In this document: piece by piece, positions 3,871 through 53,874 of the stretch
Layout of the letters: each line of letters opens with the position of its first letter
Numbering within the stretch: position 1 is the stretch's first letter
From: Escherichia phage ECD7
Length of the DNA stretch: 64,000 nucleotides
Reading direction: 5' to 3' (one strand)
Sequence record: NC_041936.1
Translations under genes and position numbers: made by a program
Notes under the pieces: generated by a model
Databases searched by the model: none
Seen by the model: the letters and a program-made list of their open reading frames with translations, nothing else
What the model was told of the DNA's origin: nothing

Positions 3871-5733
3871 TTACATGTGCTTAACGCGGTTTACCATCTC
3901 GGAGTGTTTCCCGTGATTAAATGGACGCAGATCAACAGATCCAAGATATCCACTAACGCGACGGATAACATTCATCTTTTCCAGATTGTCATTGCCGCAA
4001 TCAGGACAAACAAAACCAGACTCGGTCGCTCTCATTTCCTTATTAGATCCGCATACATGACATACATCAGAAGGAGTATTAACACCGAAGTAGTGCAATT
4101 TATCCATTGCATAGTCTACTACAGTTTCAAGACCTTTCAGGTTGTTTTTCATGTCTGGGAACTCAACATAAGAGATCATGCCACCGGACGCCAGCCAGTG
4201 ATAATCTTTCTCAAAGTCGATTTTCTCAAATGGTGTGACTTTCCGGTCTACGTCAAGGTGGAATGAGTTGGTGTACCAGTCTTTATCGGTAGCACCCTTA
4301 ACAATACCAAATTGCTCTCTGTCCAGTCGATTAAATCGATAGCAAAGGCTCTCGGCTGGCGTACCGTAAAGACTAAACCCAAGTCCGGTTTCATCCTTCC
4401 ATTTTTCAGTATAATGACGCAAGATCTTAAGAATATGTTTACCGTATCGCTGCGCATCTTCCGAATCAAACGGATGAACACCAAACAGGACGCTCAATAC
4501 CTCATGTAAACCAATATATCCAAGAGAGATACTAGCGCGACCATCTTTCAGAACTTCCAAAATTTCATCGTTTTGATGAATACGGAAAAATGCACCTTCG
4601 GTATACAGCACCGGAGCAACATTGGCTTTAGCACCTTTTAAAGCGTCTACGCGACTCATGAGAGCATCAAAGCAAATAGGCAGACGATTAGCTAGCTCTT
4701 GTTCGAATAGCTCAATTCTGCGCATTACAGACGCTTTACCAGCACGACGCGCGGCAATAAGAGCAATACGCGGAAGATTCAGAGTCACAACACCCAAGTT
4801 ATTGCGTCCGTCTAATACTTCCTCGCCTTTCTCATTATGCCACACACCCAGGAAGCTACGACAACCCATCGGGCTAACCGGAACACTAGATCCAGTGATA
4901 CTACGGTTATTCTTCGCAGAGATATAATCAGGGTAAAGACGCTTACTAGAACATTCCAATGCAAGTTGCTTAATGTCGTAGTTCGGATCTTCCGGTTTAA
5001 GGTTTAATCCTTCTTCTAAGAACATCACCAGCTTAGGAAACACCGGAGTGATACCATCTTTACCTAAACCTTTAGTTCGAACGTTCAGGATCGCTTTCTG
5101 AATCAGTTTTTCTTCCCAGCTAGTACCCATACCAAAGGTTAAAGTCACAAAAGGCGTTTGACCGTTGGTGGAGAACAAAGTGTTGATTTCATATTCCAAC
5201 GCTTGATACCCGTCTAAAGTTTCTTTTTCTGTCTTCTCTTGTGCATAGAGAGTATCAGCTTTGATTCCGTAGGTTTCGGCATCAGCAAGGTGTTTATGAT
5301 ATGTTTTCTCAACATACGGTGCTAACACCTGATCGATGTTTGCGATTGTGGTCCCGCCATATTGATGACTTGCCACCTGTGCGATAATTTGAGCGGTTAC
5401 AGCACAAGCAACGCCGATCGATTTCGGACTTTCGATTTGTGCGCTACCCAATTTAAAACCATTCTCTAACATGTCTTTGAGATTAACAAGACAGCAGTTA
5501 GTAAACGGCATAGCGGGTGCATAATCCATATCATGATAATGAATATCACCGTCTACATGCGCTTTATAGATGTGCTCAGGTAACACGGTTTTAGCAATCT
5601 GTTTAGACACAGCACCAGCAATCAGATCTCGACGTGTCGGGAATGTTCGCGCGTCTTTGTTCGCGTTCTCTTTGCTTACTTCGTTTTCTTTACCCGTTGC
5701 GATCTCTGTAATGTCTTTGATTAGTTTTTCCAT
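3871..5733 (-). CDS. nrdD: anaerobic ribonucleoside-triphosphate reductase (glycyl radical enzyme), uninterrupted
   Basis: 620 aa; C-terminal glycyl-radical motif RVSGYLG and Zn-ribbon CHVCGS...CPDCGN; no intron in the ORF. Confidence 0.95.
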   Translation of the reverse strand: MEKLIKDITEIATGKENEVSKENANKDARTFPTRRDLIAGAVSKQIAKTVLPEHIYKAHVDGDIHYHDMDYAPAMPFTNCCLVNLKDMLENGFKLGSAQIESPKSIGVACAVTAQIIAQVASHQYGGTTIANIDQVLAPYVEKTYHKHLADAETYGIKADTLYAQEKTEKETLDGYQALEYEINTLFSTNGQTPFVTLTFGMGTSWEEKLIQKAILNVRTKGLGKDGITPVFPKLVMFLEEGLNLKPEDPNYDIKQLALECSSKRLYPDYISAKNNRSITGSSVPVSPMGCRSFLGVWHNEKGEEVLDGRNNLGVVTLNLPRIALIAARRAGKASVMRRIELFEQELANRLPICFDALMSRVDALKGAKANVAPVLYTEGAFFRIHQNDEILEVLKDGRASISLGYIGLHEVLSVLFGVHPFDSEDAQRYGKHILKILRHYTEKWKDETGLGFSLYGTPAESLCYRFNRLDREQFGIVKGATDKDWYTNSFHLDVDRKVTPFEKIDFEKDYHWLASGGMISYVEFPDMKNNLKGLETVVDYAMDKLHYFGVNTPSDVCHVCGSNKEMRATESGFVCPDCGNDNLEKMNVIRRVSGYLGSVDLRPFNHGKHSEMVNRVKHM

Positions 5734-49074: not shown

Positions 49075-50475
49075 ATGGCAAACAATACTATTAACCACGT
49101 AAAAGACGATGCTCAATACGTCAAGTTTAACCCTGTAAATGATTGGCCTCAAAACATTACCAACGTACAAGCGGCTTTAGCCGCTATTAACGGCTTTGCT
49201 GTAAATGGATTGCCGGACGCTACGGAAGATACAGCCGGGATCGCTGCAATCGCAACTCAGGAAGAAGTAAACGACGGTACTGTAGATAATAAGATCGTGA
49301 CTCCAAAAACACTGGCTGTTAAAATGTCACGTCCAGATGCTACAAAAGAAGTAAAGGGTATCACCCGATTTGCCACGATGGAAGAATCGCTGCAAGAGAG
49401 CAACGAGAACATGGCAATCGGTCCAGACACACTAAACCATTACTTCACCACTAAAAAGGCGTCAGAGAGCGTTCAGGGGACTATTAAGATATGTTCTCTT
49501 GAGGCAGCAAAGATTGGCAGTGATGACACAATGGCAGTAACACCGAAAAAGATGCACACTGCCATTGCACAGATTGTGCCGGGATTAATTCCAGATCAAA
49601 ACACAGCAACCGAAAGCGCACAGGGTTTAGTTCAGTTAGCAACTAATGCGCAGGTTTTACAAGGCCAGATTCGAGAAGGTTTTGCAATTAGCCCTTATGC
49701 ATTTGCAAATGCTCGCGCCAATGAGAATCAGGCGGGTACTGTTAAGATCGCCAGCCAGTCACAGATGAATGCTGGTTCAGATGATACTGTAGTTGTTTCT
49801 GCTAAGAAGTTTGCAAGCACTAAGGCAACAACGTCTCAATACGGCATTGTTAAACTACGAGACACCGTAGGAAGTGAGGCTAACGCTGCACTATCAGCAA
49901 ATGCTAAGGTTCTTCCTAGCACTGGCGGTACGGTAAGCGGAAACGTCTATAAAGGTTCAAACTCAGACGGCAACCAGTTTGTTACTAAAAATGAATTAGC
50001 GAATCACGCAATGCCAATTGGTGGTATTATCCTTTCTGGATTCAATGCCGATCGAGGTGACTTTCTGATCTGTAATGGTCGTTCACTGAATAAAAATCAA
50101 TATCCGCAATTATTTTCTGCGATTGGTTATACCTTTGGTGGTTCAGGTGACAATTTTAATATTCCTGATATGCGCGGTTTAGTTGCTCGTGGTTGCGATC
50201 ATGGAAGAAACCTTGATCCAGGTCGTCGATTTGGTTCTTATCAAGAAGATGCAATGCAGAGAATTACTGGTAAATTCCCTGTAGCTGACCGCTGGCGCGG
50301 TTGGTATGGTGGCGCATTTACTGCACAGCGCGGTCAATGGAGCACGAACTATAAAAACGGTGGTGGTGATGATTGGGGTTCTACTGTTAACTTTGATTCA
50401 GGAAGATCCGTAAGAACGGCTAACGAGACTCGCGTCAAGAGTCTGGCATTAAACTATATCATAAGGGTGCGCTAA
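49075..50475 (+). CDS. 12: short tail fiber protein gp12
   Basis: 466 aa; N-terminus NNTINHVKDDAQYVKFNPVNDWPQNITNVQAALAAI and C-terminal NIPDMRGLVARG collinear with T4 gp12. Confidence 0.9.
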   Translation: MANNTINHVKDDAQYVKFNPVNDWPQNITNVQAALAAINGFAVNGLPDATEDTAGIAAIATQEEVNDGTVDNKIVTPKTLAVKMSRPDATKEVKGITRFATMEESLQESNENMAIGPDTLNHYFTTKKASESVQGTIKICSLEAAKIGSDDTMAVTPKKMHTAIAQIVPGLIPDQNTATESAQGLVQLATNAQVLQGQIREGFAISPYAFANARANENQAGTVKIASQSQMNAGSDDTVVVSAKKFASTKATTSQYGIVKLRDTVGSEANAALSANAKVLPSTGGTVSGNVYKGSNSDGNQFVTKNELANHAMPIGGIILSGFNADRGDFLICNGRSLNKNQYPQLFSAIGYTFGGSGDNFNIPDMRGLVARGCDHGRNLDPGRRFGSYQEDAMQRITGKFPVADRWRGWYGGAFTAQRGQWSTNYKNGGGDDWGSTVNFDSGRSVRTANETRVKSLALNYIIRVR

Positions 50476-52244
50476 TGATTGAACAATTAAACATCCACGA
50501 GATCCCACATGTTGACGGTGTACCAAGCGAAGGACAGCACCGTATTAACTGGATCAAGAATGGCGAATGTTTAAGCGCAGCAACGACACAGACGGGCAAT
50601 GACGGGACGCTTAACCGCGCCCCGGTTGCAATTCAAGAAAACGTTGCACGCGTAAACGAAAACGCAAAATCAACCGTCGCTAAAGTTAACGAGGTTGTAA
50701 CGGCGGTTAACGATATTAAAACAACTTTAGGGGTAATTTCTGACGGAAGTATCATTGATGTGGTTAACCAGACTGTCGCAAAAGTTGAATCCGTCGAAGA
50801 GAACTTAGGAGAAACAGCAAGAACTCTGCAAACAACGGTAGACGCTGTATCAGAACTTAACATCAAGATTGGTGATCGCCCCGCTGCCGATCCGAGCACA
50901 AGAACAATCTATGATGACATTTCTTTCATCAAACAAGAAATGGGTTCTTATCCTAACTTTAATATCAATGGTTCCCCTGATGCTGGCAGTTCCGGTTCTG
51001 GCATCAAATACCGAGTTATTCAGAATACCGCAGCATTAAATGACCACGGTCGCCGAATCATTCAGCTTGAAAACGACTGGCAAGATTCTGACGTAGGCGA
51101 GTTAACAAGACAAGTTAACAAAATGCGCAGTGAGATCGGCGACACGTCTCTTGCAACACAAGAAAATGTGTATGTTCGTCTCCGCACCAACGCAAGAAAC
51201 ATTGCTAACTTATCAAACGAAGTTCTAGAAGTCAAGAAAGCAATTTTGTTTGATTCAATCCCTGATATCGGGACTAAAGTCACTACGCTGGGAACTAATT
51301 ATGAACGTCTAAACAATGATGTTAATGGTGTAGATTCCGGTATTCGTCCTCGTCTTCTGGCTGTCGAGAATAAGATCGGAACGCCTCAATCGGCTGGAAG
51401 CATTGACTATCGATTAACCAACACAGAGCGAGAATTTTTAGATCTTAAACAGGTTGTTGGTGTAAGCGGTGCTGACGGTTTGCGCGGTGAAGTTGTTCGA
51501 CTTTCCAATGAGATTGGCACTGACAGCGATCGACATACTCTAGCCGGACGTATTAAAGTTGTAGAAAACACTCAGGGTCGGTTAGAAGCAAGCGTACAGG
51601 ACATGGAACAGATTGTAGGTGATCGCGAATCAGGTTTGACCGCTGGCGTTATTAAACTATCAAGTGATATCTATGGCGATGATGGTTCAGAAGATCCATT
51701 TACTCAGAAAGGCGTGATTAAAATCGTCAAAGAGCTACAAACATCTAACGGAAACAAAGTAGATGATGTACCTGATGACGGTTTCCATTATCTGCGTAAG
51801 CGCGGAGAATGGGTGCAAGTTGCATATGCTGCTGGAGCATTTAAAAATACCGCAGATATTACGGTTGAACTTGACGAACAGGATGTTTATAAACCGATTC
51901 CGCTAAACGATATGACCGAAGAAGTTCCTGCGCGTGGAATGGTTAAGAGCGAATCTCTTGTTACGGTTAACGACAAAGGATTATTCCGTTGTGATTTCCG
52001 TTGTTCTGTAAATGCGGCACATAACGCTACTTTCGTAGTCGGTATTGCTAAAAATGGTCTGATTGTACATGAGGTACGAAATGGTCATTATGGAGCTGAT
52101 GATTTAATTAGCTATTCTACCAGTGCTTTCCTAAATATTGAAAAGGGCGACCGGATCGATATTCGCATTAAGGGCGTATCCGAAGAAGCATTAGCGCAAC
52201 AGCTACAAATTAAAGAGTTCCTCTTTGGGATTTCTCCGGTATAA
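50475..52244 (+). CDS. wac: fibritin (whisker/neck fibre) with extra C-terminal domain
   Basis: 589 aa; N-terminus VDGVPSEGQHRINWIKNGE as in T4 wac; foldon-like YLRKRGEWVQV followed by about 140 additional residues. Confidence 0.85.
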   Translation: MIEQLNIHEIPHVDGVPSEGQHRINWIKNGECLSAATTQTGNDGTLNRAPVAIQENVARVNENAKSTVAKVNEVVTAVNDIKTTLGVISDGSIIDVVNQTVAKVESVEENLGETARTLQTTVDAVSELNIKIGDRPAADPSTRTIYDDISFIKQEMGSYPNFNINGSPDAGSSGSGIKYRVIQNTAALNDHGRRIIQLENDWQDSDVGELTRQVNKMRSEIGDTSLATQENVYVRLRTNARNIANLSNEVLEVKKAILFDSIPDIGTKVTTLGTNYERLNNDVNGVDSGIRPRLLAVENKIGTPQSAGSIDYRLTNTEREFLDLKQVVGVSGADGLRGEVVRLSNEIGTDSDRHTLAGRIKVVENTQGRLEASVQDMEQIVGDRESGLTAGVIKLSSDIYGDDGSEDPFTQKGVIKIVKELQTSNGNKVDDVPDDGFHYLRKRGEWVQVAYAAGAFKNTADITVELDEQDVYKPIPLNDMTEEVPARGMVKSESLVTVNDKGLFRCDFRCSVNAAHNATFVVGIAKNGLIVHEVRNGHYGADDLISYSTSAFLNIEKGDRIDIRIKGVSEEALAQQLQIKEFLFGISPV

Positions 52245-52251
52245 GAAATTA

Positions 52252-52278
52252 AAGGGGCGTTAAGCCCCTTTTTCGTTT
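52252..52278 (+). terminator. rho-independent terminator after wac
   Basis: Hairpin GGGGC-gttaa-GCCCC + TTTTTCGTTT. Confidence 0.55.
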
Positions 52279-52290
52279 ATAGGTGATATT

Positions 52291-53223
52291 ATGTCAGGAT
52301 ATGTAACAAATAACCCAAGAGAATTAAAAGACGCTATTCTGCGTCGTTTAGGCGCACCAGTAATTAACGTAGAAGTAACAGAAGACCAGATTTACGATTG
52401 TATTCAGAGAGCATTAGAACTCTATGGGGAATATCATTTCGATGGTGTGAATAAAGGATATAAAGTATTTCGTGTTAGTGCAGAGCAAGCTCAACACGGG
52501 GTATTTGATTTGAGCGATTCTGGAGTATTCGCAGTAACTAAAATAATTCGAACAAACGTAGGTAGCGCGGCTACGATGGATGGCACTGCCGTTTATCCGT
52601 GGTTTACTGACTTTCTGTTGGGTTTAGCTGGTGTAAATGGCGGTTTAGGATCTGGCTGTAGTAAATTTTATGGTCCAAATGCAATGGGCGGTGATCTAGG
52701 ATATTTCGAACAGCTTATGAGCTATCGAGCCACTATGCAAAATATGCTCAATCCGCTTCCAGACTATTGGTATAATAGCGCAAACGGACAACTTAAGATA
52801 ACAGGAAACTTCCGAGAAGGTGATCTCATTGTTGTTGAATTATATGTTAAAAGCTATGTAGACGTTCCTGATATGATCGGCGCGGTTGCTGGTTATGCTC
52901 ATGCTGGAGGATGTTCTACCGCTGGCGGGATTAGCGCCGTTTATGATAATCCAACTGCTGGTTTAAGCGGGATTGTTGCTGGCATGGGACCGATCAGTGA
53001 GAACAAGCAGGGCGCATATAATAACCGTTGGGTTAAAGACATGGCAACCGCTTTCACTAAGGAGGTGTGGGGGTCCATCATGGCTAAACATCAAGGTCTG
53101 CAATTACCCGGCGGTGTCACTGTTGATGGTATCCGAATCATTGAAGAAGCACGCGCCGACATTGAGAAATTGCGACAAGAACTAGAATTATTAGATCCTC
53201 CGTTCGGCATCCTCATGATTTGA
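52291..53223 (+). CDS. 13: neck protein gp13
   Basis: 310 aa (T4 gp13 is about 309 aa); synteny. Confidence 0.8.
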
Positions 53224-53289: not shown

Positions 53290-53874
53290 ATGGCATATTA
53301 TTATCTATATCAAATAACAAATAATTTAAATGGGATGGTCTATGTTGGTATGAGAACGTCCAAAAAACCAATAGAAAAGGATTCTTATTGGGGGAGCGGA
53401 AAACGAATTAAAAGAGCAATAAAAAAGTATGGAATAGAGAACTTCACAAAAACTATTCTTTCCACACACAACACGTTAGAAGAACTAGCTTTAGCAGAAA
53501 AAAAGATAGTGACTAAGGAATTTGTAGAAAGAGAAGATACATATAATATTGCTCTGGGTGGAGTGAATAGAGGTTCTTTGTGGGATGACATGGACGAAGA
53601 AACAAAAAATGAAGCAAGAAGAAAAATATCTGAAAAAGCATCCAGTCGAAAAAGAGAATCTCACTCAGACGAGACTAAAAATAAAATGAGTCAATCGGCA
53701 AAAAATAGAAAGAGAGATTGGGAAAATTTTAAAGGCGCAAGAAAAATTATGGCAGAAGGTGTTCTATACCTAACCACTCAAGAATGTTGTAGAAAGTATG
53801 GGATATCAGCCGCTTCTATGAGGAAACGAGTAAAGTCAACCGCAGAAAAATGGAAGGAGTTTTATTATGTTTGA
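53290..53874 (+). CDS. free-standing GIY-YIG homing endonuclease (Seg/I-TevI-like)
   Basis: 194 aa; N-terminal [23 protein letters not shown]...[16 protein letters not shown]...EELALAEKK fits the GIY-(x10)-YIG, Arg, Glu layout; AT-rich; between genes 13 and 14. Confidence 0.8.

Follow-up and report, generated by a model that had tools for sequence, protein, structure and literature searches.

The fibritin of Escherichia phage ECD7, Wac, carries 140 residues beyond a foldon-like hairpin, and we propose that these residues (450–589) form a trimeric C1q-like head that nucleates folding of the neck whisker and makes up its distal contact surface. We put the probability of this reading at roughly 0.6; it draws on structural modelling and on analogy with phage T4. 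The analysis covered a 64,000-nucleotide window of the ECD7 genome (NC_041936.1) and the relatives found by database searches with its wac gene. The homology of the hairpin, the existence and conservation of the extension and its predicted fold are established here, and the folding requirement that the head would account for comes from the literature. ECD7 Wac is a member of the described RB49-type fibritins, and the extension was already known. Our additions are a predicted C1q/TNF-like fold, a retained foldon hairpin, a narrow distribution by sequence and a mosaic within the genus.

Fibritin tips control the timing of tail-fibre deployment in T4-like phages, and the T4 foldon is widely used as a trimerisation tag. 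A C1q-like head, if true, would explain why RB49 Wac fails to fold with the foldon-like hairpin alone, and it points to another natural trimerisation module, besides the foldon, for use in coiled-coil fusions. Residues 450–589 also offer a concrete object for asking whether the whiskers of RB49-like therapeutic phages bind their own fibres or the host surface.

The wac gene and its neighbours

The wac gene, encoding an RB49-type fibritin of 589 aa, lies at positions 50475–52244 of the window on the plus strand. Gene order in the list of open reading frames places it between gene 12 (short tail fibre) and gene 13, as in T4. The upstream neighbour is a 466-aa ORF with a Pfam Collar domain that is annotated gp12 in relatives, and the downstream neighbour is a 310-aa gp13 homologue. 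Wac matches PHROG 1056, 'fibritin neck whisker', over residues 1–581 (E 5.9e-186). At the nucleotide level the gene is 99.7% identical to wac of Escherichia phage JEP8 and 95.5% identical to that of RB49, and all 56 of its megablast matches are Krischvirus-type coliphages in which it is annotated 'fibritin/neck whiskers'. On the basis of these identities and the uniformly Krischvirus-type matches, ECD7 is placed by sequence comparison as an RB49-like genome (Krischvirus, Straboviridae).

Directly 3' of the wac stop codon, a scan found an intrinsic terminator-like hairpin with a T-rich tail, AAAGGGGCGTTAAGCCCCTTT then TTCGTTTATA (52251–52281, plus strand; the hairpin proper is 52251–52271). A terminator is annotated at the same site in G37-3, G2494 and Makalu_001. 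The gap between wac and gene 13 measures 46 nt, and the terminator-like hairpin that it holds is strong and bidirectional, with an 8 bp stem that includes 5 G-C pairs. The ORF list and the terminator scan place gene 13 directly after the terminator, with no chaperone gene downstream of wac.

Homology to T4 fibritin extends through a foldon-like hairpin

By alignment, the homology of ECD7 Wac to T4 fibritin begins at the N-terminus and reaches as far as residue 449, the end of a foldon-like hairpin. The N-terminal neck-attachment domain spans about residues 1–60 (50475–50654, plus strand; the boundary is approximate) and is assigned from its match to 1ox3 and 2ibl. Residues 7–84 align with these crystallised N-terminal fibritin fragments at an E value of about 2e-15 (phmmer, PDB), bearing out the T4-like N-terminus noted in the first-pass annotation. 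In fibritins this N-terminal domain, about 50 aa long, is the conserved neck-binding part (PMC3797505). The shaft, approximately residues 61–430 (50655–51764, plus strand), is homologous to the segmented coiled coil of T4 fibritin. Residues 6–431 of Wac align to the 487-aa T4 protein with an E value of about 1e-49 (phmmer, PDB sequences), and the shaft runs collinear with T4 residues 5–435, a homology that gives the coiled-coil assignment.

The shaft leads into the foldon-like beta-hairpin motif DVPDDGFHYLRKRGEWVQV at residues 431–449 (51765–51821, plus strand), identified by Pfam Fibritin_C and by alignment with T4. A second phmmer stretch aligns Wac residues 425–449 (NGNKVDDVPDDGFHYLRKRGEWVQV) with T4 residues 456–480, the foldon; taken alone, this stretch scores weakly against T4 fibritin (4.8 bits, independent E 85). 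Fibritin_C itself covers residues 368–451 at profile positions 2–92 of 93, with E 1.9e-30 and 105 bits against a cut-off of 21. Foldon-tagged fusion constructs in the PDB (haemagglutinin, spike) match Wac residues 396–451. The segment had initially been equated with the foldon that closes T4 fibritin, and this identification holds: the C-terminal foldon motif is present in ECD7 Wac, but it is internal rather than terminal.

The hairpin core, Y-x-R-K-x-G-E-W-V, is conserved; the same does not hold for LLSTFL, the hydrophobic foldon tail of T4. Serratia phage 92A1 fibritin and P0005 both retain the motif, as NPDDQFYYVRQGDRWVQI and VPNDDFYYVRNHANWIQV, respectively, and between RB49 and JSE its dN/dS of 0.04 is the lowest in wac.

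The extension is genuine and narrowly distributed

The extra C-terminal domain, residues 450–589, is encoded at 51822–52241 on the plus strand and is predicted to form a C1q/TNF-like jelly-roll head. Codon 450 starts at nucleotide 51822, and 51822–52244 holds exactly 140 post-hairpin residues plus the stop codon. The initial estimate of about 140 extra residues was therefore accurate, with exactly 140 following residue 449 where T4 has 7. Within the extension, residues 450–480 are a lower-confidence linker with the first strands, and residues 481–589 are the core. The peptides FRCDFRCSVNAAHNATFVVGIAKNG quoted in the first-pass annotation are present in Wac. The two cysteines, Cys 506 and Cys 510, vary among relatives: in JK32 position 510 is Thr, and the homologues in Serratia phage 92A1 and P0005 are without both.

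Comparison of fibritin lengths across relatives, proposed together with the original observation, gave a uniform result, with 10 of 10 Krischvirus wac genes encoding 589 aa and aligning without gaps. The 140-aa segment is present at full length in 57 phage records and is annotated fibritin or wac wherever the record is annotated (tblastn). Because the 589-aa length recurs in ten genomes, the segment is complete in 57 records and a terminator follows the stop codon, the extension is genuine and not an artefact of sequencing or gene calling. Its amino acid identity is 82% to RB49 and 94% to JSE.

Beyond Krischvirus, a tblastn search of 50,697 phage records added a single protein, the Serratia phage 92A1 fibritin (26% identity), in which a foldon-like hairpin also precedes the domain. 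An exhaustive phmmer search of 1.84 billion representatives matched only RB49-type Wac, P0005 and P0004. P0005 is a 591-aa fibritin of the same architecture with 31% identity. A profile search of PDB sequences with the tip alignment returned chance-level matches to ribosomal protein L15 alone. As far as sequence similarity reaches, the extra domain hardly occurs outside Krischvirus and a few Serratia-type fibritins.

P0004 is a 696-aa protein of six near-identical repeats of ~115 aa (…GEEIPPGTNITWRYEVTNTGNLPLSNINVTDDKLG…), which give six matches to the tip (E 1.9e-10, 22% identity). We regard it as a likely spurious match, in which repeats or composition probably drive the score, or else beta-sandwich domains resemble each other distantly.

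A word-indexed protein search returned nothing for residues 376–589 and, for the tip, just two 110-aa 'proteins'. For these two, P0001 and P0002, we considered a tip protein encoded on its own or translation from an internal start at Met480, and rejected the idea: both are artefacts of N-run gaps in wac. The gaps occur in two Krischvirus-like metagenome scaffolds, L011 (about 3900–3929) and L023 (444–453), at about codons 455–475. Gaps in two independent scaffolds hit the same stretch of wac, adjoining the recombination junction described below, a coincidence that would fit strain heterogeneity breaking the assemblies at this site.

The extension is predicted to fold as a C1q/TNF-like jelly roll

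We modelled the extension with AlphaFold2 as a monomer, with and without the hairpin, using an alignment of five sequences for each model. The model of residues 421–589 has a mean pLDDT of 60.8; that of residues 450–589 has a mean pLDDT of 72.7 and a pTM of 0.69. Both are all-beta, in keeping with the beta-rich appearance of the sequence remarked on at the outset. Confidence is moderate, and residues 450–458 and 485–490 score below 50. The predicted fold is a ten-strand beta-sandwich jelly roll.

Searching the PDB with Foldseek returned cerebellins, C1QL, 4-1BBL, collagen X NC1 and BxpB at probability 1.0. Against BFVD there were 310 matches at E<=1e-3, many of them phage or giant-virus proteins named 'C1q domain containing' or 'collagen triple helix repeat'. 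Pfam profiles point the same way at lower scores. BclA_C matches ECD7 Wac with E 0.0018 and 18.6 bits, below its cut-off of 38. Among eight homologues, BclA_C was hit by six (best E 1.6e-4) and C1q by four (best E 0.0049), all below the gathering scores, and no match to Pfam C1q, TNF or BclA_C reached its gathering score. We conclude from the models that residues 450–589 are likely to form a C1q/TNF-like jelly roll, which is an assignment at the level of fold and not of curated family membership.

BFVD also holds two short stand-alone proteins of T4-like phages with a tip-like predicted fold: A0A192YAF6 from Morganella phage vB_MmoM_MP1 (141 aa, 'fibritin neck whiskers') and A0A1J0MHA5 from Klebsiella phage KPV15 (159 aa). 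They match the tip with TM scores of 0.64 and 0.67, respectively, at E about 1e-5. Other lineages may thus have C1q-like whisker tips too, perhaps encoded by ORFs of their own or by split genes.

The ECD7 allele is a recombinant

Diagnostic sites, together with sliding-window and per-region identities, delimit a JSE-type recombinant tract in an RB49-type backbone at about 51900–52800 (plus strand). Its left junction falls between nucleotides 51899 and 51902, in codon 476, and its right junction between 52776 and 52854, inside gene 13. Among the sites that distinguish RB49 from JSE, 392 of 394 at 50322–51899 are RB49-type, and the next 68 (51902–52203) are JSE-type without exception. The ECD7 wac allele is a sharp recombinant that changes from RB49-type to JSE-type within these few nucleotides, with its last 114 codons JSE-type. 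The same mosaic is found in JEP8, PHB13, E26, 011D4, ELT3 and ELT4, and nearly so in Makalu_002. Letarov and Krisch described the C-terminal module as no longer mobile (PMC3797505). That immobility concerns swaps between fibritin types; within a type, alleles are evidently still being exchanged.

Rates of change differ between tip and shaft. Between the RB49 and JSE groups, dS is 0.78 in the tip, half the 1.6 of the shaft, and dN/dS is 0.18 in the tip, about twice the 0.09 of the shaft. Within close pairs, tip dN/dS reaches 2.1 (JSE vs G37-3) and 0.60 (JSE vs KFS-EC) against 0.15–0.18 for the shaft, values based on about 6–7 replacements in 109 codons. This pattern fits gene flow in the tip combined with overall purifying selection. 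Variable tip positions are scattered over the predicted fold (21 of 72 strand and 15 of 37 non-strand positions) with no single loop cluster, and the stretches 544–556 and 578–589 are invariant.

Between gene 13 and gene 14 lies a 194-aa ORF for a GIY-YIG homing endonuclease (53290–53874, plus strand), which matches Pfam SegE_GIY-YIG at E 9.5e-7 and, weakly, the DNA-binding domain of I-TevI. Within the phage database its DNA is limited to Phi1, kvi and phiS, which carry it under the annotation SegC. The ORF is absent from RB49, JSE, JEP8 and E26, although JEP8 and E26 have the ECD7 wac allele, and the ECD7 genome is therefore a mosaic matched by no single database record. Co-conversion by the homing endonuclease was considered as the cause of the wac mosaic and rejected. 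The segC-like gene occurs in Phi1 and kvi, which have the RB49-type tip, and in phiS, which has the JSE-type tip, and is absent from JEP8 and E26; the two show no link.

Tip alleles do not track the long tail fibre genes

The abstract of Letarov et al. 2005 is said to report that novel gpwac C-termini accompany novel gp36 C-termini. We compared wac with the long-tail-fibre loci (L012–L021) of ten Krischvirus genomes. The tip showed no covariation with gp34, gp35 or gp36 in these genomes (Mantel r between -0.21 and -0.06); the comparison with the gp37 N-terminus, made without alignment across indels, is unreliable. Individual phages make the same point. In JEP8, which has the ECD7-type wac, gp36 is RB49-type and the tip JSE-type; JK32 has a gp36 identical to that of RB49 and a tip that is 19% different. 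The comparison shows that tip diversity is not driven by co-evolution with gp34, gp35 and gp36. It leaves fibre binding unrefuted, as a conserved interface would give the same outcome.

A gp36 homologue accompanies this tip type in Serratia phage 92A1, a co-occurrence that may simply be common descent, and gp36-C-like sequences are found as well in phages without a detectable RB49-type tip.

Across Krischvirus, amino acid differences reach at most 10% in gp34–36 and 22–25% in the wac shaft, where dS is near-saturated at 1.5–1.9. Either wac has diverged more than is usual for a structural gene, or recombination has homogenised the fibre locus. In phage Brandy, gp37 (L020, 6979–9908) is annotated as two overlapping ORFs and, read as one, contains many stop codons, which indicates a frameshift or sequencing error in this distal tail-fibre gene.

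Possible functions of the tip

In the proposed whisker, the neck-binding N-terminus and coiled-coil shaft would lead through the foldon-like hairpin into the 140-residue predicted jelly roll. C1q/TNF-like domains are obligate trimers whose N- and C-termini lie together at the base. Three copies at the tip would, in the geometry that we infer, form a globular head capping the trimeric whisker. Such a head would most likely act as the C-terminal nucleus that sets the register of the shaft and trimerises it. The 27-residue foldon of T4 trimerises its shaft alone, and C1q-like domains do so in collagen X, C1q and BclA.

Fibritins are trimeric, and in RB49 fibritin the enlarged C-terminal domain is required for trimer folding, the small motif alone being insufficient (PMC3797505). 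We propose that this requirement arises because the head nucleates trimerisation from the C-terminal end. Judging from the known foldon structure, the hairpin would no longer suffice because, unlike its core, the hydrophobic tail found in T4 is not conserved. The head would also provide the distal contact surface of the whisker, most probably for the knee of the long tail fibre. This partner is suggested by T4, in which the C-terminal part of fibritin is the contact site for the long tail fibre (PMC3797505); by the same analogy the tip would hold the knee region during long-tail-fibre attachment and retraction.

Alternatively, the tip could be an accessory adhesin or lectin that binds host glycans reversibly (LPS, O antigen or capsule) and concentrates virions before the long tail fibres engage, with allele exchange as adaptation to hosts. 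We consider this possible but rather unlikely. The first-pass annotation had suggested an accessory receptor-binding or environmental-sensing module; the structural side of that reading, a distal domain added beyond a homologue of the T4 foldon, holds. The closest structural matches found by Foldseek are receptor- or carbohydrate-binding phage fibre tips, namely the cyanophage A4 tail fibre, the 'CBD' (so named in its PDB entry) of the cyanophage A-1(L) short tail fibre, the lactococcal phage 1358 RBP with GlcNAc, the mycobacteriophage TM4 gp23 receptor-binding domain and PRD1 P5, along with a Photorhabdus TNF-like lectin. However, the same fold is purely structural or serves folding in BclA, ExsFA and collagen NC1, and the tip has no known ligand. 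Two further points in favour of an adhesin are that within wac it is the tip that is exchanged between lineages, and that it does not covary with gp34–36. In RB49-like phages, however, gp38 rather than Wac is where differences in host range and host-range mutants have been mapped (PMC9569957). The raised dN/dS of the tip in close pairs also counts in favour; yet those ratios come from a handful of replacements, the tip is under purifying selection over longer range, and its variable positions spread across strands and loops alike. Letarov and Krisch proposed adhesin-like roles for the enlarged tips of RB43 and Aeh1 (PMC3797505), and a 2026 preprint describes k-mers predicting LPS-sugar specificity in gp12 and the neighbouring fibritin gene, a signal that most simply reflects linkage to gp12. 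Still more doubtful is the bolder version in which the C1q-like head is a second, glycan-binding adhesin system, independent of the long tail fibres, and exchange of tip alleles between lineages, as seen in ECD7, tunes which E. coli surface is first bound.

It seems improbable that the tip is a folding or stability cap only, devoid of a binding partner, its variation being neutral drift plus ordinary homologous recombination among co-infecting Krischviruses. Folding is the sole function of the domain with published experimental support (PMC3797505), and the recombinant tract is not domain-shaped, since it starts at codon 476 and runs for ~0.9 kb into gene 13, as ordinary homologous exchange predicts. 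The metagenome scaffolds that break in the same stretch of wac would likewise fit mixed strains in a sample. Against this, the C-terminal part of T4 fibritin does contact the long tail fibre (PMC3797505), and without any interaction at its far end the whisker would be deprived of both functions known for Wac, yet the gene is full-length in 57 of 57 relatives and under purifying selection.

A chance resemblance to the foldon followed by a longer coiled coil, the outcome named at the outset as refuting the observation, or a read-through or gene-fusion artefact, can be dismissed: the foldon stretch scores poorly by itself, but Fibritin_C extends through the hairpin at E 1.9e-30, the motif follows collinearly on a homologous shaft and is conserved in relatives of 26–31% identity, what follows is predicted to be a separate folded all-beta domain with a strong jelly-roll match, and the 589-aa length is constant in ten genomes with the tip in 57 records.

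Comparison with known systems

The nearest relative of the proposed C1q-like head on a whisker is RB49 gpwac itself, the RB49-type fibritin reportedly first described by Letarov et al. 2005 (J Bacteriol 187:1055). RB49 gpwac is the same gene in the same position with the same length of 589 aa. The ECD7 allele differs in being recombinant, and here the foldon hairpin is found to be retained and the extra part is given a predicted fold. T4 fibritin is homologous to ECD7 Wac in N-terminal domain, shaft and hairpin and has the same gene 12 and gene 13 neighbours, but it ends 7 residues past the hairpin, whereas ECD7 Wac adds 140.

Other fibritins have enlarged tips of different kinds: Ig-like domains in the RB43 type, two foldons in the JS98 type and a chaperone gene in the Aeh1 type (PMC3797505). 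As in ECD7, these types join a conserved N-terminus and shaft to a swapped or extended C-terminal module; the module itself differs. Phage receptor-binding heads that resemble the predicted tip (A4 tail fibre, 9k09; A-1(L) short tail fibre CBD, 8ke9; phage 1358 RBP, 4l92; TM4 gp23, 9n6a; PRD1 P5, 1yq5) are carried on host-contacting tail or vertex fibres. The ECD7 tip is instead on the neck whiskers, which in T4 have the long tail fibre of the phage itself as their known partner.

The C1q/TNF-like heads of BclA and ExsFA of the Bacillus exosporium, of gC1q, of collagen VIII and X NC1 and of cerebellins are, like the predicted tip, ten-strand domains of ~110–140 residues placed C-terminal to a trimeric stalk. 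Wac differs in having an alpha-helical coiled coil, not collagen, as its stalk, and identity to the tip is 9–20%. Heads of the BclA/C1q type nucleate trimerisation of their stalk, which matches the folding requirement reported for RB49 Wac.
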